A DNA stretch of 32,000 bases from Edaphobacter aggregans (lineage in GTDB: Bacteria > Acidobacteriota > Terriglobia > Terriglobales > Acidobacteriaceae), in assembly GCF_003945235.1 (NCBI RefSeq), contig NZ_RSDW01000001.1, forward strand, positions 1,770,001 to 1,802,000, read 5' to 3'. Under the pieces are notes generated by a model. That model saw only the letters and a list, made by a program, of their open reading frames with translations, did not search any database and was not told the origin of the DNA. Below, in pieces: positions 2,501 through 17,645 of the stretch (position 1 is its first letter; the number at the start of each line of letters is the position of its first letter). A program made the translations under genes and the position numbers.

Positions 2501-3709
2501 TTATTTAACCGGATCAGGCGGTCTTACCACAAGCGGCAACAGCACCGAAATCGTCATCACCACCGAGATCACGTGCAGTCCGCCCACGTACGTTCCACTG
2601 GCCTGACGCAGATGCGCGATCAGCAAAGGCCCAAAGGCGCTGGCAAATCCCCACGCCGTCAGCATCAGCCCATAGATCGGTCCCACATTCTTCGGCCCGA
2701 AATAATCCGCCGCAAACGCAGGCATCGTCCCAAACCCACCGCCGTAGCACATCAAAATGGTGAAGCTGACAATTGTTATGGCTACAACCGCATGAAAACT
2801 CGGCAGAAACCAGAACAACAAAATCTGGAGAAGAAACATCGCCGCAAACGTCATCTTCCGGCCCAGTGTGTCTGAGACCCACGCCCAGAACACCCGCCCC
2901 AGCGCATTTCCGATGCTTACGATCCCGACCATCCCCGCCGCCGTAATCGCCGTAATCTTCGCCAACTCCTGAAAGATCGGAGCCTCCTGCGAGATCAGCG
3001 AAATGCCCGCCGATGTATTCAAAAACAGCAGCAGCCACAGCGCCCACCACTGCCACGTCTTCAGCGCCTCATTCAGCGTAAAGTCCTTAGCCGACTTCTG
3101 CCGAAGCTCCTTCTCTGTCGGCGTCCACCCCTCTGGCGTCCAGCCATCCGGTGGATTTTGCATAAACCAGCCCGCAGCCACACTCACAACCAGATAAGCA
3201 ACGCCCAGGTAAGCGAACGTCTGCAGCACGCCCACGCTCTGAATCAGCCGCGTAGCAATCGGAGCCGTCACCAGCGCCCCCGCGCCAAAACCTCCAACCG
3301 CAATGCCCGTCATCAAACCGCGTTTATCAGGAAACCACTTCAGCAGCACCGCCACCGGAACGATGTACCCAAACCCCAGCCCAATCCCGCCGATCACTCC
3401 ATACGTCAGATAAAGCCACCACAGCCCATGGTTCGAAGCGCTGGCCAGAAAAACCCCCACGCCATACAGCGCCCCACCCGTCATCGCGACTATTTGTGGC
3501 CCCACTCGCTTCAACCAGAGCCCGCCAAAAAACGAAGCGAACCCCAGCACCATAATCGCAATCGTAAAAGTAAGCGTAACCTGCGAAATCGTCCACCCAA
3601 ATTGTTTCGACAGCGGTATCCGAAACACGCTCCAGGCGTACACCGCGCCTAGCGCCATCTGCAGCAGGACCCCAGCAAACGCAATCCCCCAACGATTCCG
3701 TGTCTGCAT
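2501..3709 (-). CDS. MFS transporter, oxalate/formate antiporter (OFA)-like subfamily
   Basis: 402 aa, hydrophobic throughout (about 12 TM segments). The N-terminus RWGIAFAGVLLQMALGAVYAWSVF is typical of OFA-type MFS proteins. The ATG at 3709 has GGAGG upstream. It ends 80 nt upstream of acs on the same strand. Confidence 0.85.
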   Translation of the reverse strand: MQTRNRWGIAFAGVLLQMALGAVYAWSVFRIPLSKQFGWTISQVTLTFTIAIMVLGFASFFGGLWLKRVGPQIVAMTGGALYGVGVFLASASNHGLWWLYLTYGVIGGIGLGFGYIVPVAVLLKWFPDKRGLMTGIAVGGFGAGALVTAPIATRLIQSVGVLQTFAYLGVAYLVVSVAAGWFMQNPPDGWTPEGWTPTEKELRQKSAKDFTLNEALKTWQWWALWLLLFLNTSAGISLISQEAPIFQELAKITAITAAGMVGIVSIGNALGRVFWAWVSDTLGRKMTFAAMFLLQILLFWFLPSFHAVVAITIVSFTILMCYGGGFGTMPAFAADYFGPKNVGPIYGLMLTAWGFASAFGPLLIAHLRQASGTYVGGLHVISVVMTISVLLPLVVRPPDPVK

Positions 3710-5568: not shown

Positions 5569-8500
5569 CTATCGCGACTCCGTCTTCCACACAAGATGGT
5601 CCTCTTCCGGAAAGACTTCTTCCTCTTTGAAATTCAAATATCGCGTCTTCAGCAAAAGCCCCGTCGCGTCATACTCGCGCACCGCACGGCAATAGCCGCC
5701 GACTCTCTCCACTGGCTCACCCTCCACTCCAAAGAAAGTCGCCTCTACTTCACTGCCAAGTTCGTCATACCGATTAACTCTCTTGAAATAGCCATACTTG
5801 CTCAAGACAGGCTCGCCATCCACTCCAAAATACAAATGCTCAACATCGTGGTTGCGCGCATCGTATTTTGACTTCAACGTGGCATATCCGTTTTCACAAA
5901 GAATCGGTGCGTCATCCACTCCAAAAACTGAGTGCTCAACTTTATTTCCTCGCGCGTCGTACTTGTTCTTGATTCGGGCATAGCCGCCTTTGGCTACAAC
6001 CAAAGCGCCATCCACCCCGAAATACGCACCCTCTACCCAGTTATCGCGCTCGTCAAAGCTCTGCGTGACTTTGGCAAATCCGTCGTCGGAGTTCATCAAA
6101 CTCCCGTCCGTTCCGAAGAATTCTTGCCCCACCAGATTTCCGCGGTCGTCATAGCGTTTCGTGCACGTCGCATAGCCATACTTGCAGACAATCAGATCGC
6201 CATCCACTCCATAGCAGGATTGTTCGATCATATTGCCGCGCTCGTCATACCTCTCCCGCAATATGGCCCAATTCTCCTTACAAAGAATCGGAGCGCCATC
6301 CACTCCAAAACAACGGTGCTCTACTGGATTGCCTCGTCCATCGAGGGAGTGCGTACGCCGCGCATCTCCGGTCTTACTAAGAATCGGCTCCCCATCCACT
6401 CCGAAACAGTTGTCTTCAATCGCATTGCCGCGCTCGTCATACTTCTGCCTGAAAACGGCATAGCCGTCATTCGCCAGAATCGGAGCGCCATCCACTCCGA
6501 AATGCGCCTGTTCAATCCTGTTGCCGCGTTCGTCATAGCTGTCTTTGCGTTTGGCATAACCGGCCTTGCATAGCACTGGAGTTCTATCCACTCCGAAGTA
6601 CGCCTGTTCCACAATATTGCCGTGCACATCATGGCTCGCGGTCATCCGCGCGAACTCATTGTTGCGAAGCACCGGGCCGCCATCCACTCCGAAATAGGCT
6701 TGTTCAGCGACGTTGCCATACATATCGTACTTATGGACATGGCGCGCATAACCTTCCTTGCGGGTAACCGGCCTACCATCGACGCCAAAATAGGCCTGCT
6801 CCAGCGGGTTACCGCGATCATCGAAGATCGACTTCGCGCAAGCTACTCCTTCTCTGCCAGCTGTCGGCGTGCCATCCGCTGCGAAATAGGACTCCTCAAT
6901 CCTGTTGCCGCGTTCATCGTATTTGGCGACCCACCGCGCAAAGCCGCCCTTGCCCACCGTCAAAACGCCATCTGTTCCATAACAAACCTGTTCGATCCTG
7001 TTGCCGCGTTCGTCATAGGTTTGCGTTAGCCGGGCAAATCCCTCTTTGCTCAGGATGGGCTTGTCATCCACTCCGAAATACTCCAGTTCAGCTACATTCC
7101 CACGCGCATCATAGCCCTGCTTCAAACAGGCGTAACCGAATTCGCTCAACGTTGGTCTACCCTCAACATCGAAGTACCTCTCCTCAATAAGATCATCGCC
7201 TTCGTCATATTTCGCCGTGGACGTCGCATACCACGACTTGTACGGAACCGGCCTTCGATCGAACCCTAAATAACCGATCCTTGTCTGATTGCCACGATCG
7301 TCATAGTCCGCAATCCACAACGCATGACGCTGTTCTCTCAAAGTCGGACTCCCATCGACTCCCCAGCTCGCCGACTCAATCATGTTGCCGTGGGCATTGT
7401 ATTTTCCGGTCCATATCGCGAAGTTCTCTGTACTTAGAGTCGGCCTCCCTTCCGTGTCGAAACAGATGTCCTTCAGTTTGTTGCCGAACTCGTCGAAGCT
7501 CTGCTCTACAGCCGAGTACCCATCGCTACACAAGGCAGGCTGCCCGAGAGCATCAAGATAAATCCAGCGAATCAACCACCCCGCCGCATCAAACTCATCT
7601 CTGCGTTCCGCCACCCCATTCCGCTGAATCGCATGTCCATCCTGAGCATCCAGAAACCACATCCGCGTCACCAACCCGCGACTGTCAACCTCATACCCTT
7701 CGCCATAGTTGCCCATAGCATCCTGCGCCGGCGTGTTGTACGCATCGCGCGCATACCGTCGTCGCACCACATATCCCCGCTCATCGTAGTCAAGCCGATG
7801 CCGCACAATGCCCGCTCGCCGCTCCTTCAAATCCGCAACGAGCTTACGAGCCAATCCCATGCCTCCCACAAACCCGGCCTGCGCGACCGCGGTGTCGTCC
7901 TCTCTCAAAAAGTCCACCGTCCGCCCGTCCCGCGAGTAGCTCTCCCGCACCTTCACTCCACCATGCCGATTGCGCCGATCCACCGACTCCACCGCCCCCG
8001 ACGAGCGATACATCACGTCCCACTGCGCAATCCCCTCCCCGTCTTCACGCAGAATCCCGTGGCTGTCCACCCGTTGAACACTCTCCACCCTTCCCGCGCG
8101 CACCTCAAACCGATACGAGTACTCCCGATGCAACACCTGCTCCTCCGTCAGCGCGCCCACACCCTCCGGAATCCCCCGCCGCCGCACCACGTCGTGAAAA
8201 TACGCAACAACCGTCTCGCTCCGCCGTTCCGCCTCCAGACTCTGCCGCAGCTCAGCAAACGAACACCCAAGCAGCGCAGAAAGAATCCGATCCCGCGCCA
8301 GGTCCTTCAACTCCTGCTCTGTCTTGTTCTGTCTCGGAGTCACATCCGCCCCAGCAGGAACAATCAACTCCATCACCGTATCCCGGCCCTCACCCACCAT
8401 CCTGTACTGCCGCAGCAGTTCGGGATACGACTCCTCCGGCGCACCCTCAATCAAAAGCGCAAGGATGCGATCGGCCCGTCCCCAGTGCCGAAATAGAGCA

Positions 8501-8799
8501 ATCTCCGCCCTCACCCAGTTCGACTTCGGAGTCTCAGGAGAACAAACCACAATCAGGTAGTCCGAATCCCACAGAGCCGCCTTCAACTCTCCCGACAGAT
8601 CACCGCTGGCCGCCAGATCTCCCTCATCGCGGAACAATCGCCCAATCTTCTTCGGAGTTCCCCGCCGCCGCAACGCCTCAGGCGTCTCAAAATCCGAGAG
8701 CGCGCCCACCAGCCATTCAGCCCAGCCCGTATCCTTCGGCAGACGCCGATAGCTAACGAAGGCTGTATACCTGCTCTCCTGCACTGTCATGCTCACCAA
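5569..8799 (-). CDS. TIR-domain protein fused to a long array of 32-residue YD-like repeats
   Basis: 1076-aa ORF. The track start is TTG at 8799; an in-frame ATG at 8790 (MTVQESRYTAFVSY) is the more likely start. The N-terminus carries TIR hallmarks (FVSYRR..., DYLIVVCSPETPKSNWVRAEIALF). The C-terminal approx 720 aa are repeats with consensus YDERGNxIEQxxFGVDGxPxLxKxGYA. No signal peptide, TM helix or Walker A motif. Confidence 0.9.
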   Translation of the reverse strand: MVSMTVQESRYTAFVSYRRLPKDTGWAEWLVGALSDFETPEALRRRGTPKKIGRLFRDEGDLAASGDLSGELKAALWDSDYLIVVCSPETPKSNWVRAEIALFRHWGRADRILALLIEGAPEESYPELLRQYRMVGEGRDTVMELIVPAGADVTPRQNKTEQELKDLARDRILSALLGCSFAELRQSLEAERRSETVVAYFHDVVRRRGIPEGVGALTEEQVLHREYSYRFEVRAGRVESVQRVDSHGILREDGEGIAQWDVMYRSSGAVESVDRRNRHGGVKVRESYSRDGRTVDFLREDDTAVAQAGFVGGMGLARKLVADLKERRAGIVRHRLDYDERGYVVRRRYARDAYNTPAQDAMGNYGEGYEVDSRGLVTRMWFLDAQDGHAIQRNGVAERRDEFDAAGWLIRWIYLDALGQPALCSDGYSAVEQSFDEFGNKLKDICFDTEGRPTLSTENFAIWTGKYNAHGNMIESASWGVDGSPTLREQRHALWIADYDDRGNQTRIGYLGFDRRPVPYKSWYATSTAKYDEGDDLIEERYFDVEGRPTLSEFGYACLKQGYDARGNVAELEYFGVDDKPILSKEGFARLTQTYDERGNRIEQVCYGTDGVLTVGKGGFARWVAKYDERGNRIEESYFAADGTPTAGREGVACAKSIFDDRGNPLEQAYFGVDGRPVTRKEGYARHVHKYDMYGNVAEQAYFGVDGGPVLRNNEFARMTASHDVHGNIVEQAYFGVDRTPVLCKAGYAKRKDSYDERGNRIEQAHFGVDGAPILANDGYAVFRQKYDERGNAIEDNCFGVDGEPILSKTGDARRTHSLDGRGNPVEHRCFGVDGAPILCKENWAILRERYDERGNMIEQSCYGVDGDLIVCKYGYATCTKRYDDRGNLVGQEFFGTDGSLMNSDDGFAKVTQSFDERDNWVEGAYFGVDGALVVAKGGYARIKNKYDARGNKVEHSVFGVDDAPILCENGYATLKSKYDARNHDVEHLYFGVDGEPVLSKYGYFKRVNRYDELGSEVEATFFGVEGEPVERVGGYCRAVREYDATGLLLKTRYLNFKEEEVFPEEDHLVWKTESR
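5635..7812 (-). repeat. in-frame 96-nt periodic coding repeats (21 strictly phased units plus 2-3 degenerate ones)
   Basis: The [YF]D-x-x-G-N motif recurs at protein residues 403, 435, 467 ... 1043, exactly every 32 aa. At DNA level atcctgttgccgcgttcgtcata is identical at 6515-6537 and 6995-7017, and matches at 21 of 23 positions at 6899-6921. Most other units have diverged. Confidence 0.85.
8425..8772 (-). other. TIR domain region (residues approx 10-125 of the 1076-aa protein)
   Basis: Carries the FVSYRRLPKD start, an alternating beta/alpha pattern, and the S-N-W-V-R-A-E motif. The Glu codon GAG is at 8503-8505, at the position of the catalytic Glu of NAD-cleaving TIR domains. Confidence 0.8.
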
Positions 8800-9007: not shown

Positions 9008-10324
9008 TTAAGATGGAATGAGGTGCTTCAGTTGACTCTTGATCTCATTCGATCGATCCTTCGCCAACTGATCATTCCCCTTGGTGTACCGCGTGCAATC
9101 TGCCGACCCCAGCAGCAGCAATTTGTCGCCCGTCTTAAATCCCGCGAGCACCTCTCCTTTGAGCTCGTCCACCTTGGATGCCGGACTCGACTTCCCTTCG
9201 CCAAATAAAGGCTTGGTTAGCGGCGTCACATCAGTTGAGTTCAATACGCTAACGTGCGAATTACCCGGCCCATGATCCACTCCGGCCCCGCCTCCACAAC
9301 TGGAGCAGGAAGGGCATCGCGCAACCACAGCAAACGACACAACAAGAATCATCAGCGAAAACCCCATCGTCAAAGGCGAAGCGATCTTCTTCTCGCCGCC
9401 CTCCGAGTCAGTGTCAACCGGACCCTCTACGGACACACGCTTAAAGAACCCAGCCACCATCAGACCAATCGCAACCACACCAAAAACGGCAATCAGTCCC
9501 CAGAACTCTTTCCCGCAGAACTTCGAAAGATGCTCCGCATGTTCGATCATCGCGATCGAAAGCGGAGCCGCTCCCGCAATCGGCGCCGCCGAAGGATGCT
9601 TCTTGACGACAAAAAACAGAAGCCCCAACACCGCGGCAACCAGCACAATCGTCATCCACGGAACGCCATTCCCCTGCGCCGACTGATTCTTCAAATAATC
9701 CAGCAGAGCACTCTTGATCTCTTCATCGAGCTTGAGAACATTCTCACCAGTCCCACCCTCCTTCCCCCCCAACGCCGACCCCAAACTATCGAGACATCTC
9801 TTCAAATCTCCATCAAGGTCTTCCGTAAGCCGATTAATCACCTGCTGCTGAAACTGCTGGTTCTGCTGCGCACGTCCCGTAGCCTCGGTATAGTTCAACC
9901 ATCCCAGAGCGACCACGACCATCAGCGCAACCTCCATCAGGCTCCGCGTCAGACCACTTCGATGCCACGCTTCCGGAGCGGGCTCCTTCGTCAGAACATT
10001 CTTCGGCACATCCGGCGGTGGTGCCCCTGTGATGTTCGCGTTCGTCGTTGGCATCCCCGCGGCGCCAGACGGTGGCGCGGGACCCGTCGGCAACTTGTCC
10101 GAATCATCCTTCGGCGATCCGCTCTCCTCGATCCGCTTGGCCCACTCCGACGACTCCCCAAACAGCACAACCCCAACAACAAAAAGCGCCCATATCCCAA
10201 TTCCCTTCCACCCCAGCCCCGAAGCATGCAGCAGCGCCCCGAGGGCAACCGCCAGACACACCACTCCGGCAAGCCTGATCGCTGAATCCGACCTAACGAA
10301 CTTCCGGAATCCGGATACTTTCAA
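9008..10324 (-). CDS. hypothetical polytopic membrane protein with degenerate OmpA/MotB-like C-terminal domain
   Basis: 438 aa. The TTG start at 10324 has GAGGTGA upstream. There are about 6-7 hydrophobic segments (residues approx 17-34, 41-56, 127-144, 222-240, 274-294, 316-336). A Pro-rich linker and a Gln-rich helical loop (150-215) are present, plus a CPSCSSC cluster. The C-terminus PLFGEGKSS...LLLLGSADCTRYTKGNDQLAKDRSNEIKSQL (nt approx 9026-9211) fits the OmpA-like pattern F-x-x-G-x-S ... G-x-x-D ... N-x-x-L-x-x-x-R. Confidence 0.7.
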   Translation of the reverse strand: MKVSGFRKFVRSDSAIRLAGVVCLAVALGALLHASGLGWKGIGIWALFVVGVVLFGESSEWAKRIEESGSPKDDSDKLPTGPAPPSGAAGMPTTNANITGAPPPDVPKNVLTKEPAPEAWHRSGLTRSLMEVALMVVVALGWLNYTEATGRAQQNQQFQQQVINRLTEDLDGDLKRCLDSLGSALGGKEGGTGENVLKLDEEIKSALLDYLKNQSAQGNGVPWMTIVLVAAVLGLLFFVVKKHPSAAPIAGAAPLSIAMIEHAEHLSKFCGKEFWGLIAVFGVVAIGLMVAGFFKRVSVEGPVDTDSEGGEKKIASPLTMGFSLMILVVSFAVVARCPSCSSCGGGAGVDHGPGNSHVSVLNSTDVTPLTKPLFGEGKSSPASKVDELKGEVLAGFKTGDKLLLLGSADCTRYTKGNDQLAKDRSNEIKSQLKHLIPS

Positions 10325-11351: not shown

Positions 11352-12320
11352 CTACGAATACCGCTTCTTGTGCCACTCCCACGCGCTCAAAATAATTTGG
11401 TCTAACTCCGGAAACTTCGGCCTCCACCCCAGCTCCGCCTTGATCTTCTCCGAGCTGGCCACCAGCACCACCGGATCACCCAGCCGGCGCGGACACTCCT
11501 CCACCGCAATCGGCCTCCCGGTCACCCGCTGCACCGACTCAATCACCTCACGCACCGTAAAGCCCTGCCCAGTCCCGATGTTGTAAATCAATCGACTCTT
11601 CTCCTTAAGCGCCCCTAATGCAAGCAGATGCGCGTCCGCCAGATCCTGCACATGGATGTAATCCCGCACACAAGTCCCATCCTTGGTCGGATAATCCTGT
11701 CCAAAAATTTTGATACTCGCCCGCCTCCCCATCGCCACATCCAGAATCAGCGGAATCAAATGCGACTCCGGCTCATGCGCCTCCCCATAACCCTCAATCG
11801 CCCCAGCCACATTGAAGTATCGCAAGCTCGCATAACGAAACCCATGAATCTGATTCATCCACCGGAGCATGTACTCCACCAGCAACTTGCTCTCTCCATA
11901 GGGGTTAGTCGGCGCAAGCTTCGCATCCTCCAAAATTGGGATCTTCTCGGGATCCCCATAACAAGCCGCCGTCGAGCTGAAAACCAGCTTGTCATGCCCC
12001 GTAGCCAGCATCGCCTCCAGCAGCGTCAACGTCGAAGCCGTATTGTTCCGAAAATAAATCTCTGGACGCTGCATACTCTCCCCCGCCTCAATCAGCGCAG
12101 CGAAATGCATTACTCCATCGAACTTCCCTTCCTGCAGCGTCTTCTCCACCAGCGCACGATCAGCAAGATCGCCTTCAACAAACTTCACTCCATCAGCCAC
12201 CGCCAACCGCTTGCTATGACAGAGGTTGTCCAACACCGTCACCGAATGGTCTCCGCCAAGCAGCATTCTGCACACAGTTCCGCCGATATATCCCGCACCG
12301 CCAGTCACTAAAATATTCAT
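11352..12320 (-). CDS. galE: UDP-glucose 4-epimerase
   Basis: 322 aa with the Rossmann motif MNILVTGGAGYIGG and the catalytic YGESK (YxxxK). It resembles GalE over its full length. The ATG has GGGGAG upstream. Confidence 0.92.
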   Translation of the reverse strand: MNILVTGGAGYIGGTVCRMLLGGDHSVTVLDNLCHSKRLAVADGVKFVEGDLADRALVEKTLQEGKFDGVMHFAALIEAGESMQRPEIYFRNNTASTLTLLEAMLATGHDKLVFSSTAACYGDPEKIPILEDAKLAPTNPYGESKLLVEYMLRWMNQIHGFRYASLRYFNVAGAIEGYGEAHEPESHLIPLILDVAMGRRASIKIFGQDYPTKDGTCVRDYIHVQDLADAHLLALGALKEKSRLIYNIGTGQGFTVREVIESVQRVTGRPIAVEECPRRLGDPVVLVASSEKIKAELGWRPKFPELDQIILSAWEWHKKRYS

Positions 12321-12679
12321 TTAAAACACTCCCCTTGTTCTCTACTTGGATACCACAAAAGTATCAGTGTCAATCACATACGGTTACGGCAATATACTTG
12401 CAGTAAGTGAATGGCAGAGCCCGGCTGGACTACATATGCACGGCGCCTGCTGCAACCTTTTTGCGCAACCTTGCTGTCTAGGTTAAGCCCCGCGGCGATA
12501 GTGGTTTCAATTTTGTTTTTTCACTTTCGCTGTGAACAGTTGCATCGAGTCGGTCGGCAAAGTTCGAACACTCGACGGCGCTCCGTAAGCATTCGGAGTT
12601 TCACCCATCGCTACACCAGTTCTGGCCTGCCGCCAGAGTTGGTCCTCGGCCTTCCGATCAGGCCCCTTGAAGGATTTTT

Positions 12680-13771
12680 ATGGCAAAGCCGCTTCGCAGT
12701 GATGACCCTTCACCGCAGAATATGCAGTTCTCCCACTTCGGTGTTCTCAACGACGGCAGCCAGAGCAAGGGTTCGCTCTTCACCTCCATCTCTCTCAACA
12801 TCATCATCGCCATCGTCGTCTGCATCATCGGCGCCGCGGCAAAAAAGACGATGGACAACAGGCACAAGCTCACCGAGCTGAGCCTGGCGCCCCTTCCCAA
12901 GCAGCCCGAACCCGAGCCTATCAAGCCCAAGATCATTCCCCCTAAGCCACTCCCCACGCCTCCGGTCGTGAAGGTCGAGCCGCCCAAGATCAAGATGCCC
13001 GAGGTCAAACTCCCCGAGCCGCCTAAGCCACCAGAAATTAAAATGGTGCAGCAGCCTCCAATCCTCGTCCCTGCACCGCCCAAGATTGTGCAGCCTCCGC
13101 CTGCGCCTAAGATCGTGAATCTTGCCCAGGCCCAGCCTGCCGCAGTCGCCAACAACTCGCCGCACCCGGCTCCAATCGCGCTCGGTCAGCAGAACAATCC
13201 CATTGCTCCATCCAATCGCCCCACCGCCTCTGCGATCAACCTTGGCAATAGCGGCGCGGCTGGAATGCCCGCGTCAAACAAGGGCATGGGCCCAACCACC
13301 GTCAGCCTCGGCTCAGGATCTGCCTCCAGTCAGAACATGAGCGGCAGAGACAATGCAGCCGCTGTCAAGGGTGTCAAGCTCGGCGTCACCGGTGGAACCG
13401 GACCTCTCAACTCGCCTACTCGCGTCGCAGGCCCGGTCAATCTTGGACAGAACACACCGCCTCCCGCACCCAAGCCCACTGGGCCGGTGACCACGGCGAA
13501 GTCTGCTCCCAAGGTCCTCTTCAAGCCGCGTCCTGAGTACACCGCTGAAGCCATCAAGCTCCATATCGAAGGCACCGTCTCCGTTCGTCTTCGTGTCTCC
13601 TCCACCGGTACCGTCCAGGTTCTCGGCGTCACCAGCGATCTCGGCCACGGACTCGGCGACTCAGCCGTCCGCGCCGTTCAATCCACACGCTTTTCGCCCG
13701 CCACAGACGCGTCGGGAAATCCCGTCGATTGGGAAGGTGTAGTCAACGTAGCCTTCCAACTCGCCGGATAA
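12680..13771 (+). CDS. TonB-family energy transducer
   Basis: 363 aa. An N-terminal TM anchor (FTSISLNIIIAIVVCIIGAAA) is followed by a Pro/Lys/Glu-rich spacer (PEPEPIKPKIIPPKPLPTPPVVKVEPPKIKMPEVKLPEPPKPPEIK). The C-terminal TonB domain reads PEYTAEAIKLHIEGTVSVRLRVSSTGTV...FSPATDASGNPVDWEGVVNVAFQL. Confidence 0.85.
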   Translation: MAKPLRSDDPSPQNMQFSHFGVLNDGSQSKGSLFTSISLNIIIAIVVCIIGAAAKKTMDNRHKLTELSLAPLPKQPEPEPIKPKIIPPKPLPTPPVVKVEPPKIKMPEVKLPEPPKPPEIKMVQQPPILVPAPPKIVQPPPAPKIVNLAQAQPAAVANNSPHPAPIALGQQNNPIAPSNRPTASAINLGNSGAAGMPASNKGMGPTTVSLGSGSASSQNMSGRDNAAAVKGVKLGVTGGTGPLNSPTRVAGPVNLGQNTPPPAPKPTGPVTTAKSAPKVLFKPRPEYTAEAIKLHIEGTVSVRLRVSSTGTVQVLGVTSDLGHGLGDSAVRAVQSTRFSPATDASGNPVDWEGVVNVAFQLAG

Positions 13772-13873
13772 ACCAGTTTTGTAGTCAGCTTTGTTTTGTC
13801 GCTTCACATGTCATGAACTAGCATCAAGACCATTACAAGGATGACCCGAACGTCATCGCAGGAGCCGTAAATC

Positions 13874-15772
13874 ATGATCTTCCGGAAACACTCCACCGCC
13901 GGTCTGCTGCTGGCAACCTTCGTCGCAACAACCTTGTCGGCCCACGCCTTCGGTCTCCCCCTCGTCGGCAAAAAGAAAAAGACAGAGGACGTCCTGCCGG
14001 CACGCAAACTCACTGCCGCGCAGAATGCTCTCATCGACAAGGCCATCGCGCGCGAAAAGGTGGTCGTCAAGACCGTCAAGGAGCGGTCTCCCATCGTGGA
14101 GACCTACATCCAGACCATGAAGCCCGACCCCATCATGGGTCAGATCCCAGAATCTGACGAGCATCACCTCGCTCGTGTCGATTTCAATAGGATCATCGGC
14201 GACCAATCTTACGAAGTCAACAAAGCCACCTCGGAGGGAACGGGCGGTAGCAAGCTCGGATTCTTCAAGTCGTCGATGTCCTACATCACCAGCCTCGGCG
14301 GTAGCCTCCATCTCAACTTCCATGAGTCCGGCTTCGTCCAGATGGTCCTGATGGACTCCAATGACTTCGACCGTCAGCACTACGTCTTCGGCTACGTCCG
14401 CAACGACTTCCTTGGCAACACCCCAACAGCTGTCTTCGACGTAACTCCCATCTCCGGCAAGCGCGCTACCGGACGTTTCTTCGGCCGCATCTGGGTGGAA
14501 ACCCGCGACGGCAACGTCGTCCGCTTCAACGGCAACTTCGCCGGCAGCGAGAAGGATTACAGCGAGTTCTATCACTTCGATAGCTGGCGCACCAACGTTC
14601 AGCCCGATCTCTGGCTACCCACGTCGTTCTACGTCGAAGAGAGCGACCCCAAGAGCGTCTCCCGTACCTTGAAATTTAAGGCAATCAATCACATCTGGGG
14701 CTATGTCCTCAAGGTCCCCGCCAAGGAAACCGAAAACACCTCGCTTGATGTAGTCGGAGCAACCGACGTCAGCAACGACGCTCAGGACGTAGGCCCTCTC
14801 GGCGCACAGCGTGCCTGGGTTCAGCAAGCCGAGGACAACATCGTTGACCGTCTCTTCCAGGCAGGACTCCTCGACGCGCCAAGCGAGTTCGACAAGACAC
14901 TCGAAGCACTAGCAGGCAACATTCTCGCCTACAACAACATCACCCTTTCGCGCCCCATCCGCTGCCGCACACTCCTCACGCAGCCGCTGGAATCGGTCGC
15001 CATCGGCAACACCATCGTCATCTCTAAGAGCTTGCTCGACACCACCGGCGTCGTCACCCAGGATGGCGCGCAGCAGATGGGCAATCTCAACGCTATCCTT
15101 GCCTTCCAGATCGCACACATCGTTCTCGGTCACCGGCTTGATACCAAGTACGCCTTCAACGACCGCCTCCTCTTCCCCTCTACCTCCGTCTTCGATCGCA
15201 TCCCCATGCACCACACGGACGCCGACAACGAGGCGGCAGCCAAGAAAGCCATTGAGCTACTCAGCGCCAAGGAACTCGAAGGCGGACAGCAATACTTTGG
15301 CCTCTACCTGCAGCAGCTCCAGCAGCGCGTAAAAGCACTCAAGGCACTCAACGAGCCCATGATTGGCGACGGTCTCGTCAAGAGCGACAACGATCCCACC
15401 TTCTGGATGGCGGCCATCATGAGCAAAGGCCCCAAGCTGGACATCAAGGACCTCAAGCAACAGGCAGCTATGCCGCTCTCCAGCTTCATGCGCTTTGATC
15501 CCTGGAGCGATCAGGTCATCGTGATGCACGCAGCCTACGAGCCTCTTCTGACCGCAGCCGATAAGATGCCCTTCGAAGTCGCTCCCGTCTATCTCAAGCT
15601 GAGCTACTACAAGCCACCCGCCGATGCAGCCGCCGCACCCGCTGCCGGCAGCACCCAGGCTGCAGCAGACCCGGGAACTGCACCCGCTGCCGCTGCTCCG
15701 GCCAATAACACCGCTGCTCCGGCGCCTGCGACAACGACCCCGGCACCAACAACCGCACAACCCCAGAACTAA
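13874..15772 (+). CDS. secreted hypothetical protein with degenerate M48-peptidase-like segment and Ala/Pro-rich tail
   Basis: 632 aa with AGGAG 8 nt upstream of the ATG and a signal peptide (LLLATFVATTLSAHA). The segment VAIGNTIVISKSLL...LNAILAFQIAHIVLGH...DADNEAAAKKAIELL resembles the M48 zincin layout, but HExxH is replaced by H-I-V-L-G-H. The last approx 55 aa are low-complexity A/P/T. Confidence 0.8.
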   Translation: MIFRKHSTAGLLLATFVATTLSAHAFGLPLVGKKKKTEDVLPARKLTAAQNALIDKAIAREKVVVKTVKERSPIVETYIQTMKPDPIMGQIPESDEHHLARVDFNRIIGDQSYEVNKATSEGTGGSKLGFFKSSMSYITSLGGSLHLNFHESGFVQMVLMDSNDFDRQHYVFGYVRNDFLGNTPTAVFDVTPISGKRATGRFFGRIWVETRDGNVVRFNGNFAGSEKDYSEFYHFDSWRTNVQPDLWLPTSFYVEESDPKSVSRTLKFKAINHIWGYVLKVPAKETENTSLDVVGATDVSNDAQDVGPLGAQRAWVQQAEDNIVDRLFQAGLLDAPSEFDKTLEALAGNILAYNNITLSRPIRCRTLLTQPLESVAIGNTIVISKSLLDTTGVVTQDGAQQMGNLNAILAFQIAHIVLGHRLDTKYAFNDRLLFPSTSVFDRIPMHHTDADNEAAAKKAIELLSAKELEGGQQYFGLYLQQLQQRVKALKALNEPMIGDGLVKSDNDPTFWMAAIMSKGPKLDIKDLKQQAAMPLSSFMRFDPWSDQVIVMHAAYEPLLTAADKMPFEVAPVYLKLSYYKPPADAAAAPAAGSTQAAADPGTAPAAAAPANNTAAPAPATTTPAPTTAQPQN

Positions 15773-15784
15773 TCGCAACGGCAT

Positions 15785-15825
15785 GGGGACTTCGGCCTAT
15801 ATTGGCCAGTCCCCGCGCTTTTTTC
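15785..15825 (+). terminator. rho-independent terminator after the 632-aa gene
   Basis: The stem ggggact (15785-15791) pairs with agtcccc (15808-15814), with inner ggcc/ggcc pairing. It is followed by gcgcttttttc. Confidence 0.6.
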
Positions 15826-15879
15826 AACTAGAGACGTCGGTAACACCGCCAGTAAGCCCACTTCGGGAGGCACAAAAGT

Positions 15880-16422
15880 TTGAAACGCCATTCTCTGATC
15901 GGCTGCTTCACCTGCCTTCTGGGGCTGTCTAGCTTATCGCACGCCCAGGCTGTACCGACCGCCGAACGACGCGGCATCCTGCAACTGGGAGGCGGCCTGT
16001 CCATTGCATCCCCCGACTACAGCCCGCTTAAAATCAAAGGGCTCTCCGCGTACGGGACCTATGATTTCACCAGGCACATCGGCCTCGAAGGTGATATCCA
16101 TTACGTCAGCCTCTCCACTCCTGGCGATCTCGGAGAAGACTCCTACCTTATCGGCCCGCGTTACGTGTTTCACCATCCCCGCGTTGATTCCTATGTGAAG
16201 GCCCTCGGTGGATTTGGACGCTTCAGCTATCTGGGAGGCATCTTCCCCACCGCCACCTATACCTATAAAATTTATGCTTTTGGAGGCGGCTTGGACGTTC
16301 GAGCGTCAAGGCACATTAACGTTCGCGCCATCGACCTCGAATATCAACAGTGGCCCGGATTTCCCACTAATGGACTTACGCCTTTGGTAGCAACCATCGG
16401 CGCTGCCTATGCCTTCCGCTAA
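15880..16422 (+). CDS. small outer-membrane beta-barrel protein (OmpW/porin-like 8-strand type)
   Basis: 180 aa. The TTG start has GGGAGG 9 nt upstream. It has a signal peptide ending SHAQA, alternating hydrophobic beta-strand pattern, and an aromatic C-terminal strand IGAAYAFR. Confidence 0.75.
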   Translation: MKRHSLIGCFTCLLGLSSLSHAQAVPTAERRGILQLGGGLSIASPDYSPLKIKGLSAYGTYDFTRHIGLEGDIHYVSLSTPGDLGEDSYLIGPRYVFHHPRVDSYVKALGGFGRFSYLGGIFPTATYTYKIYAFGGGLDVRASRHINVRAIDLEYQQWPGFPTNGLTPLVATIGAAYAFR

Positions 16423-16516
16423 CGTCTCGGCGAATTACGCCGAAGAGATTGTCGATAGCTCTACCAACCCAAGGCCCGCGGTCTGCCCCACGGCACCATC
16501 TGACCGCTTCAGGGAG

Positions 16517-17056
16517 ATGTACGTGTTTAAAAGGATTCTCGTCTTTATAGTGCTGCTGGGTGGAACATCCATGCTGCACGCTCAAGCTTCACCAACCGCC
16601 TCGCGCCGCGGAGACCTTCAGATTGGCGTCGGCTATACCAACGCCAATACCGATTACGTGCCCAATCGGGTAAACGGCGGCACCGCCTACTTCACCTATG
16701 ACTTCAAGCCCCACTTCGGCATCGAAGGAGACTTCCGCTTCATCAAGGACAGCCCCACCAACTACTACGAAAAAAGCTATGAGATCGGCGGGCGCTACTA
16801 TCGCACCTACAAAGAAAAGTGGGTTCCCTACGGCAGGGTCATGTACGGTCGAGGTGTTTTCAACTTCACCTCCCAGGGTGTCACCACGGCCAATCTCGCC
16901 TACAACCTGGCGGCGGTCGGCGCCGGACTCGATTACAAAGTTCTTCCCTACCTCAACGTCAGGGGTGATTTCCACTATCAGAGGTGGTTCGGCTTTCCGC
17001 AGAACGGGCTCACACCCTCCATGTTCACCATTGGTGTCGCTTACCATTTCCGCTAG
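16517..17056 (+). CDS. small outer-membrane beta-barrel protein, tandem paralog of 15880-16422
   Basis: I place the start at the internal ATG 16517 (MYVFKRILVFIVLLGGTSMLHAQA signal peptide), not the track start 16409. It aligns with the upstream gene from the signal cleavage region (AQASPTASRRGDLQIG vs AQAVPTAERRGILQLG) to the end (YQRWFGFPQNGLTPSMFTIGVAYHFR vs YQQWPGFPTNGLTPLVATIGAAYAFR). Confidence 0.75.
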   Translation: MYVFKRILVFIVLLGGTSMLHAQASPTASRRGDLQIGVGYTNANTDYVPNRVNGGTAYFTYDFKPHFGIEGDFRFIKDSPTNYYEKSYEIGGRYYRTYKEKWVPYGRVMYGRGVFNFTSQGVTTANLAYNLAAVGAGLDYKVLPYLNVRGDFHYQRWFGFPQNGLTPSMFTIGVAYHFR

Positions 17057-17082
17057 AACACGGCCCCGACAGGCAGCCGATT

Positions 17083-17113
17083 TTGAATTAGGACTAAACT
17101 TGTCCTAATTCAA
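17083..17113 (+). terminator. perfect 12-bp inverted repeat hairpin (terminator or operator)
   Basis: ttgaattaggac (17083-17094), a 7-nt loop, then gtcctaattcaa (17102-17113), followed by atatttgtgt. It lies 27 nt after the OMP stop and 23 nt before the next ATG. Confidence 0.45.
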
Positions 17114-17135
17114 ATATTTGTGTAAAAAAGAAGAG

Positions 17136-17645
17136 ATGATTCCCTCCAGAGCTTTTCTTAAATACACACGTGTGACCCATCTCTACCTTGGTGTCTTCAT
17201 TGCTCCCGCGCTGTTTTTCTTTGCCTTTACCGGAGCGCTCCAAACCTTCAGCCTCCACGAAACCACTCGTGGCAGCAGCTACAAACCCCCAGCCTGGGCC
17301 ATGACCTTGGCTCAAATACACAAAAAACAGACCACTGTCGTCCCGGTCAGAAAACTTCCCCCACCCGAAAAGGGCGATAAGGCAGACAGGGTCGCGGCGA
17401 CACCGTCTGCACCTGTGAGCGCCCCTACAGCCGGAGCCTCCGTCCCAGCCCCGGCGTCCACACCTTCGTCAAAGCTGCACAACGCGATGCCGCTGAAGAT
17501 CTTCTTCCTCATCGTGTCTATCGGCCTGTTTCTATCGACCCTCTCCGGCCTCTACATGTCCTACAAGTACATCCACAACAAGACTCTGATCACCGTCACA
17601 CTGATCGCTGGAATCGCACTTCCAGTAATCCTGGCCATGGTTTAG
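17136..17645 (+). CDS. hypothetical membrane protein, PepSY-associated-TM-like N-terminus
   Basis: The ATG at 17136 is preferred over the track TTG at 17118. The N-terminal TM (THLYLGVFIAPALFFFAFTGALQTFSLHE) resembles the PepSY_TM helix motif. A central Pro/Ala-rich linker is followed by two C-terminal TM helices. Confidence 0.6.
   Translation: MIPSRAFLKYTRVTHLYLGVFIAPALFFFAFTGALQTFSLHETTRGSSYKPPAWAMTLAQIHKKQTTVVPVRKLPPPEKGDKADRVAATPSAPVSAPTAGASVPAPASTPSSKLHNAMPLKIFFLIVSIGLFLSTLSGLYMSYKYIHNKTLITVTLIAGIALPVILAMV

Follow-up and report, generated by a model that had tools for sequence, protein, structure and literature searches.

A TIR protein of Edaphobacter aggregans with a 32-residue YD-like repeat array, and the receptor-like family that shares the array

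Here we describe a gene in a 32,000-nucleotide stretch of the Edaphobacter aggregans genome (contig NZ_RSDW01000001.1, positions 1,770,001 to 1,802,000; hereafter the window). The gene encodes a protein in which an N-terminal TIR domain is joined, through a helical linker, to a long array of YD-like repeats. Its surroundings are core genes: acs, an MFS transporter, an M20 peptidase, yetF, an epimerase, TonB, outer-membrane proteins, a beta-lactamase-fold protein, a PASTA protein, a CDF transporter, ubiE, aroB, nadB, rsmB, fmt and aroC. The parts of the gene are collected in Table 1, in which window coordinates are used; related proteins are labelled P and loci carrying relatives L.

Table 1. 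Features of the TIR–repeat gene and its upstream slot (TM, transmembrane)
Feature	Positions	Strand	Support or remark
Whole open reading frame (ORF), 1076 aa, TTG start, ATG at codon 4	5569..8799	-	identical beginnings in orthologues L006, L010, L011 and L014
TIR domain, residues ~10-135	8395..8772	-	Pfam TIR_2, solved-TIR profile matches, Foldseek, pLDDT 84-92
Glu99 codon GAG, WxxxE motif	8503..8505	-	invariant in 21 homologues; aligned to the Glu of 'SSWCLDEL' in AtTIR
Helical linker, residues ~158-196	8212..8328	-	model helices 161-177 and 181-194
Juxtamembrane-type block Y.FHDVVRRRGIPEGVG...EQVLHREYSYRF, beta-hairpins, residues 197-338	7786..8211	-	kept in TIR, kinase and STAND relatives; model strands
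Two degenerate hairpin units, residues 339-402	7594..7785	-	sequence and model
21 units of 32 residues, exact phase, residues 403-1074	5578..7593	-	sequence, models, shuffles
Orphan multi-TM protein filling the variable upstream slot; not a conserved partner	9008..10324	-	listed because the sequence-only reading had proposed it

The TIR domain and the repeat array

An initial sequence-only reading had proposed this ORF from its TTG start, a TIR domain carrying Glu99 and a linker resembling that of multidomain TIR_2 proteins, and all three proposals were borne out. Pfam TIR_2 (PF13676) matched residues 14-132 at 36.6 bits against a gathering score of 28 bits, and Pfam ThsB_TIR reached 24.3 bits against a cut-off of 21.2 bits. 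PADLOC gave only a weak ThsB domain match (E 0.0014), and the NCBIfam Thoeris model ThcB4 scored 11 bits vs a cut-off of 220. Glu99 is the Glu of 'SNWVRAEIALF' (motif W95-x3-E99) and, together with F14, Y17, D23, W26, C86 and S87, is invariant in 21 full-length homologues. A profile built from the TIR domain and linker matched the solved TIRs AtTIR, TLR2, TcpB/BtpA, PdTIR, L6, AbTIR and SARM1, placing the family consensus 'sewvraEielF' opposite 'SSWCLDELVTI' of AtTIR, the Glu of which is the catalytic residue in plant TIR NADases. The model of this region was matched by Foldseek to the RUN1 and SARM1 TIR domains with probability 1.0, pointing to a flavodoxin-like TIR fold, while phmmer found no match for the full protein among PDB sequences.

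The cassette of TIR domain and helical linker is common to TIR-TM-WD40 and TIR-TM-TPR proteins (P0031-P0038). In these proteins a TM helix near residue 200 separates the cassette from the WD40, PQQ-like or TPR arrays, and TIR-TM-repeat may be a general bacterial architecture extending beyond the YD-like array. PDB entry 9m0n (TIR-TPR) was considered as a characterised relative and dropped, as P0036 had no PDB match and the literature on '9M0N' was irrelevant.

Motif scans of the window protein revealed no Walker A, no Rhs core motif (PxxxxDPxGL) and no PAAR motif, and neither Pfam nor NCBIfam assigned an NTPase family. No segment reached a hydropathy of 1.6, and no TM helix was found. Only 34 residues lie C-terminal to the last unit. 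The absence of Walker A, TM helix, Rhs core and C-terminal toxin, as originally noted, thus stands. A promoter and terminator scan around the gene yielded no excess over the shuffled expectation.

The 21 units keep their 32-residue phase without a single indel, and the motif recurs at seven successive 32-residue spacings vs a maximum of 0 in 1000 shuffles. The strict form [YF]D..GN occurs in only 12 of the 21 units, the others being variants with YN, HD or LD at the start, or with GD, DN, NH, GS, GL or GW at the G-N positions. The sequence-only reading, which had placed the motif in all 21 units, therefore holds for the phase and not for the strict motif; similarly, of its array beginning near residue 338 with two to three degenerate units, two such units were found, whereas the hairpins start earlier, at about residue 197. 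In the orthologue at L006, an Acidobacteriaceae metagenome-assembled genome (MAG), one unit is shorter by one residue, indicating that perfect phasing is not universal. Among 13 proteins tested, phase over at least 10 units was seen in the window protein and P0001-P0004, with single runs in the TM-bearing P0009 and P0016; exact phasing of this length is mostly confined to the clade that lacks a TM helix, described below.

Profile scans relate the units to YD/Rhs repeats. NCBIfam YD_repeat_2x scored 34.4 bits (cut-off 15.8), confined to residues 448-475, and RHS_repeat rose above threshold in homologues. At the DNA level the copies share 60-75% identity at 96-nt spacing, and Tandem Repeats Finder detected no array of 96-nt period, only a 20-nt repeat of period 9. 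Neither copy identity nor Tandem Repeats Finder left a trace of recent expansion or homogenisation, and the units are old at the DNA level. Cys content and parity were uninformative as a compartment marker.

A full-length AlphaFold2 model built on the 21 homologues had a mean pLDDT of 83.6 and showed, in order, the TIR fold, the two linker helices and beta-hairpins from residue 197 onwards. Each 32-residue unit forms one hairpin plus a connecting loop, 'GVDGxP...GYA', with strand 1 at positions 28-32 plus 1, the turn at 'DxRGN' and strand 2 at positions 7-13. The top Foldseek matches in the PDB were the YD shells of Rhs effectors of the type VI secretion system (T6SS), of TcB/TcC and of teneurin (E 1e-28 to 1e-14, probability 1.0), and engineered single-layer sheets of OspA also matched. 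However, full-model TM-scores to the YD shells were only 0.14-0.27, and a confident ten-unit fragment model (residues 531-850; pLDDT 94.8, pTM 0.82) superposed poorly on every YD shell (TMq 0.12-0.41). The local likeness to YD shells is thus recovered while the shell geometry is not, which suggests that the hairpins form a YD-type sheet whose superhelical geometry differs from that of the shells. Within the YD/Rhs repeat superfamily, these 32-residue repeats are a branch of their own.

The receptor-like family and the loss of the transmembrane helix

A word-indexed search returned 38 relatives of the window protein, whereas an exact look-up in public assemblies, with the TTG start and with the ATG start, gave no record of the protein itself. 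The closest are TIR and repeat proteins with 24-48% identity over most of their length, and alignments to P0001-P0030 gave E values of 0 to 1e-100 at 55-98% query coverage, with the juxtamembrane block detected. This block, which precedes the repeats, is conserved in relatives as 'Y[YF]..V.RWG.PEGVG..EQV.HR..SYRF', and in most of them a hydrophobic helix lies between it and the N-terminal module. The module itself varies: the array is fused to Ser/Thr kinases in P0012, P0020, P0027 and P0029, to caspase-nSTAND1 in P0015 and to nSTAND1 alone in P0030.

HMMER searches with the repeat region alone retrieved 5024 cluster representatives at E<=1e-3, 3168 at 1e-10 and 1475 at 1e-30; counted as clusters at 50% identity, the family comprises at least 1,475. 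The retrieved members bear only the names 'hypothetical protein', 'TIR domain-containing protein', 'YD repeat-containing protein', 'serine/threonine protein kinase' and 'MTH538 TIR-like domain (DUF1863)', and no relative was found on viral contigs. We classed 182 sampled proteins by local phmmer and hydropathy. The N-terminal module was TIR in 63, a Ser/Thr kinase in 48, nSTAND1 in 37 (three with an added caspase or kinase) and something else in 34, the last group including, according to Pfam scans of some of them, AAA_35 ATPases, an alpha/beta hydrolase and proteins with C-terminal PDZ domains. Irrespective of module, 160 of the 182 carry a TM helix.

A recognisable juxtamembrane block was present in 123 proteins, and in 104 of these a TM helix lay at most 70 residues upstream. 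The N-side flank of the helix was richer in Lys and Arg in 100 of the 104 (5.7 vs 2.2), an excess that predicts an N-in/C-out topology. When the window protein and its L006 orthologue were added to the sample (184 proteins), a C-terminal PDZ-like tail was found in 53, and an Rhs core or aspartyl-protease motif in none. The TM helix, the predicted N-in/C-out topology and the interchangeable modules together suggest that, as a rule, the array is the extracytoplasmic part of single-pass receptor-like proteins of type II. Collectively, these comparisons show the array of the window protein to be homologous to the predicted ectodomain of a large family of this kind, whose interchangeable, predicted cytoplasmic N-termini comprise TIR, Ser/Thr kinase, nSTAND1 with or without caspase, AAA_35 and other modules.

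The window protein belongs to a minority without the helix, together with P0001-P0005, P0007, P0008, P0024, P0070 and the L006 orthologue. In the alignment, the C-terminal end of the linker coincides with the TM-helix site of relatives, and a clean gap of 27 residues in the TM-less proteins falls precisely where the others have their TM segment. When TIR domain and linker were used for a neighbour-joining tree, the TM-less proteins came out as a single clade, drawn from Acidobacteriaceae, Gemmatimonadaceae and Rhodomicrobium MAGs. Alignment and tree show that the window protein is a predicted TM-less derivative of the receptor-like family, arisen by deletion of the TM helix. As it has neither a signal peptide nor a TM helix, the whole chain is predicted to be cytoplasmic, and the protein probably resides there. 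Two close TM-less relatives, P0001 and P0002, have a second TIR at the extreme N-terminus, giving a tandem TIR-TIR-repeat arrangement.

Divergence between orthologues and genomic setting

L006 is fully syntenic with the window, and the metagenome loci L010 (99% identical), L011 and L014 have the arrangement yetF-[slot]-TIR-M20 in common with it. Between the window and L006, the neighbouring genes other than the membrane gene in the slot are 86-97% identical (dS 0.27-0.59). Within the TIR-repeat gene, identity is 87% in the TIR domain, 91% in the linker and 83% in the block at 201-338, as compared with 53% in units 467-1042; in a sliding window, nucleotide identity is about 83% up to the neighbourhood of residue 420, where it falls sharply to about 60%. 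The same trend, in milder form, was seen for L011, with 83-86% in the TIR domain, linker and mid block vs 71.5% in the repeats. Across the syntenic Acidobacteriaceae loci, the TIR domain and linker are 83-91% and the repeats 53-72% identical. The number of units is the same in the window and L006, and many units find their best match in the positional orthologue.

Divergence within the units is uneven. The scaffold positions Y1, D2, G5, N6, E9, F13, G14, D16, G17, P19, G25, Y26 and A27 have an omega of 0.10, vs 0.53 for the remaining unit positions. The variable positions of the unit include 7, 10, 11, 18, 20-24 and 28-32. As judged from the few orthologue sequences on which this selection analysis rests, and in which old alleles or recombination are inseparable from positive selection, the repeat scaffold and the TIR Glu are shown to be under purifying selection while the repeat strand positions diverge very fast. 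Conserved scaffold and variable positions together suggest that the array is a hypervariable region on a conserved scaffold.

More distant homologues have unrelated neighbours, among them a DNA polymerase I gene (L001), an opp transporter (L003) and an ion-channel gene (L005). At L004, a 1865-aa TIR-nSTAND1-WD40 gene (11553-17150) lies directly downstream of the TIR-TM-repeat homologue P0016, a pair that may represent a clustering of TIR receptors; at L009, a coupling protein of the type IV secretion system (T4SS) stands beside a homologue, in a T4SS-bearing mobile region. At L008, a ParDE pair and caspase and TPR genes are found upstream of the TM-less homologue P0005. DraG-like (ADP_ribosyl_GH) and DraT genes are located directly downstream of P0005 on the opposite strand (L008:10710-12063); this ADP-ribose link may be coincidental.

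Two further observations concern the region as a whole. At L010 (11177-12316), the MFS gene beside acs (window 2501-3709) is swapped for a different MFS gene with 39% identity on the opposite strand, so the otherwise conserved region has a second variable slot at this site. The GC skew of the + strand is strongly negative (-0.15 to -0.36) over about 29 kb, regardless of gene orientation, and crosses zero near 29.5-30.5 kb of the window (1-32000), a pattern that might point to an origin or terminus of replication or to a boundary in strand bias. No DnaA-box cluster was found in the window, with two one-mismatch matches vs 3.8 expected.

Candidate roles and related systems

We propose, at slightly under an even chance, that the window gene encodes a ligand-gated, single-chain TIR NADase or signal generator in which sensor and effector would be united. 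The C-terminal YD-like hairpin sheet would be the ligand-binding and assembly platform, and the N-terminal TIR domain the output. A ligand on the variable surface of the sheet would gather chains, following which the TIR domains could self-associate; self-association is required for NADase activity in SARM1, plant TIRs and AbTir. The assembled TIRs may then cleave NAD+ or make a signal derived from ADP-ribose, leading to growth arrest, death or downstream signalling. By analogy with TIR-repeat and STAND-repeat proteins, the likeliest setting would be conflict, in the form of defence against phage or other invaders. This immune version of the sensor-gated TIR is a narrower claim, possible though rather unlikely. 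An immune role would be the most economical explanation given the conflict-type module set, the hypervariable sensor surface, the TIR-nSTAND1-WD40 neighbour and the mobile-region relative. In a wider joint reading, which we put forward tentatively and regard as doubtful, the array would define a large and so far undescribed class of bacterial pattern-recognition receptors, single-pass and of type II, in which the hairpin sheet outside would sense a ligand and the module inside (TIR, Ser/Thr kinase, caspase-STAND or AAA_35) would carry out the response. Such receptors would follow, in prokaryotes, the logic of Toll-like receptors with the topology of teneurins, and the window gene would be a cytoplasmic spin-off in which a hypervariable copy of the sensor would directly gate a TIR NADase against intracellular invaders without an NTPase switch.

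Several results weigh against the sensor-gated TIR or its immune version. TLR2 has the same Glu as E99 in the profile alignment and no known NADase activity, so that E99 would be necessary, not sufficient, for such activity. The array may form either an open ribbon or a closed shell. Omega is below 1 everywhere in the TIR-repeat gene (0.25 overall), and synonymous differences are saturated across the array (pS 0.6-0.78), so that positive selection is not demonstrable and the divergence of the repeats stems from old alleles, from recombination or from both. At L011 (1201-4430), the gene has a +1/-1 frameshift near residue 264, with two collinear tblastn segments in different frames, which is either a pseudogene or an assembly error. 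No defence genes were recognised among the window ORFs scanned, the 20 covered by Pfam being housekeeping or unknown, and PADLOC gave no system-level match in the window, its weak ThsB domain match being the only one. Across Acidobacteriaceae the TIR gene shows vertical synteny, which sets it apart from the usual mobile defence genes. Finally, a family so rich in kinases fits envelope or environmental signalling equally well.

This last point leads to the foremost alternative, a non-immune signalling receptor. In that case the family would sense an environmental or envelope cue and the TM-less TIR form an endogenous cytoplasmic ligand, with the TIR domain acting as a signal generator or scaffold and not as an abortive-infection effector. 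PknB-type kinases sense through PASTA ectodomains, and in the present family only TIR is joined to the ectodomain more often than a Ser/Thr kinase. The common C-terminal PDZ tails, the core-gene neighbourhood with its synteny across related genomes, and the lack of a defence-system match argue in the same direction. By contrast, the surface of the repeats is hypervariable between close relatives, one homologue adjoins the TIR-nSTAND1-WD40 gene and another lies in the T4SS-bearing mobile region, and the TIR, caspase-nSTAND1 and AAA_35 N-termini are the module set that comparative genomics links to conflict systems (PMC7159879, PMC8195603). On balance we consider a non-immune receptor a serious possibility, albeit one that is on its own improbable.

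A decaying or functionless relic, in which TM loss trapped the ectodomain in the cytoplasm, is unlikely to a greater degree. The deleted helix, the L011 frameshift and the extreme divergence of the repeats between orthologues would all be expected of such a gene. However, the 1076-aa ORF is intact, with the low omega given above both overall and at scaffold positions; E99 and the core of the TIR domain do not vary; the window and L006 have kept the same unit number and phase; and intact, diverged TM-less members persist in Acidobacteriaceae, Gemmatimonadaceae and Rhodomicrobium MAGs.

The sequence-only reading had also raised a two-gene system with the upstream membrane protein, the TIR protein being its effector half. 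In another form of such a system, the multi-TM protein would stand in for the lost TM anchor or be the effector itself. The two genes share a strand, with 208 nt between them, and both evolve fast between the window and L006. The contents of the upstream slot contradict such a pairing and make it very improbable: the 438-aa membrane protein occupies it in the window, L010 (94%) and L006 (51% by tblastn, 56% by pairwise alignment), whereas in L011 the slot is empty, yetF leading directly into the TIR gene, and in L014 it is filled by ArsR-like and rhodanese-like ORFs. The membrane protein has only two homologues among 5.8 billion proteins, belongs to no Pfam, PADLOC or NCBIfam family, and is unrelated to the neighbours of other family members, including the genes upstream of P0022, to which it has no similarity. 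The variable slot and the two homologues indicate that it is not a partner, and the TIR-repeat gene is a stand-alone unit. By eye, the upstream protein looks multi-TM. It contains a stretch rich in Pro and a segment rich in Cys ('CPSCSSCGGG'), and its C-terminal 'GSAD...N..LA..R' is reminiscent of half an OmpA-like motif.

Least probable is an Rhs-type polymorphic toxin whose YD shell would cage the TIR NADase for delivery to another cell, a reading that the Foldseek matches and the YD_repeat_2x hit favour and that is largely refuted by the missing Rhs core and aspartyl-protease motif (in the window protein and all 184 family proteins), the lack of a C-terminal toxin, PAAR motif or signal peptide, the N-terminal position of the TIR domain, the low TM-scores to shells, and the absence of VgrG, T6SS or Tc domains from Pfam scans of the window's large ORFs.

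If the ligand-gated TIR reading is correct, the YD-like hairpin sheet would be a new type among TIR-coupled repeat sensors, and a single sensor module would serve inside as well as outside the membrane, connected to outputs of the TIR, kinase and STAND/caspase kinds. TM-bearing members with a TIR domain would then couple recognition outside the cell to NAD+ chemistry in a TLR-like manner. The TM-less clade offers a simple soluble protein in which to study how a repeat sheet could gate TIR assembly without an NTPase. The family is large yet unnamed, and its architecture is a more interesting result than the single window gene. In open-access text, which affords limited evidence of novelty, we found no description of TIR fused to YD/RHS repeats, of kinase or STAND proteins with such YD ectodomains, or of TM-anchored bacterial TIR receptors of this kind.

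Among known systems, the closest in plan are the TIR-WD40, TIR-TPR and TIR-STAND-repeat 'conflict system' proteins described by Kaur, Burroughs and Aravind (PMC7159879, PMC8195603). Like these multidomain TIR_2 proteins, the window protein has an N-terminal TIR_2 domain with WxxxE, a helical linker and superstructure-forming repeats; unlike them, it has YD-like 32-residue hairpins, no NTPase and a lost TM helix. As found by term searches, the two papers name TPR, HEAT, WD/beta-propeller, pentapeptide, LRR and ankyrin repeats and no YD-like type; RHS repeats are unmentioned in both, as is 'YD repeat' in the 2020 paper.

The Rhs/YD shells of T6SS Rhs proteins, TcB-TcC and teneurin share with the array the local beta-hairpin sheet and the YD..G motif, and teneurins further share with the TM-bearing relatives the type-II order of cytoplasmic N-terminus, TM helix and extracellular YD-type domain. 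The period differs, however, at 32 residues (a hairpin plus a 12-14-residue 'GVDGxP..GYA' loop) as opposed to about 20 in Rhs/YD, and the window protein, whose geometry is not superposable on the shells (TM 0.12-0.41), lacks the core protease, plug domains and encapsulated C-terminal toxin of Rhs proteins.

Thoeris ThsB and the window TIR are linked by the ThsB_TIR match and the weak PADLOC match, and the same NAD-derived chemistry is predicted for the latter. By contrast with ThsB, the window protein is about 1076 aa long with its own sensor array, and no ThsA-like gene (SIR2, Macro or TM with SLOG) was present among the 20 window ORFs scanned with Pfam. STAND/NLR TIR proteins have a central P-loop NTPase, which the window protein does not, although relatives with the same repeats have nSTAND1 or AAA_35. 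The window protein is therefore not a Thoeris system, having no ThsA, nor a STAND/NLR protein, having no NTPase; with no Rhs core and no toxin, it is not a classical Rhs toxin either, as had been recognised from the outset. PknB-type kinases and Toll-like receptors share with the family a single-pass layout with a repeat sensor outside and a signalling domain inside. The family ectodomain is unrelated to PASTA or LRR, one ectodomain serves both kinase and TIR versions, and the family is type II where Toll-like receptors are type I, the window protein being the form from which the TM helix is gone.

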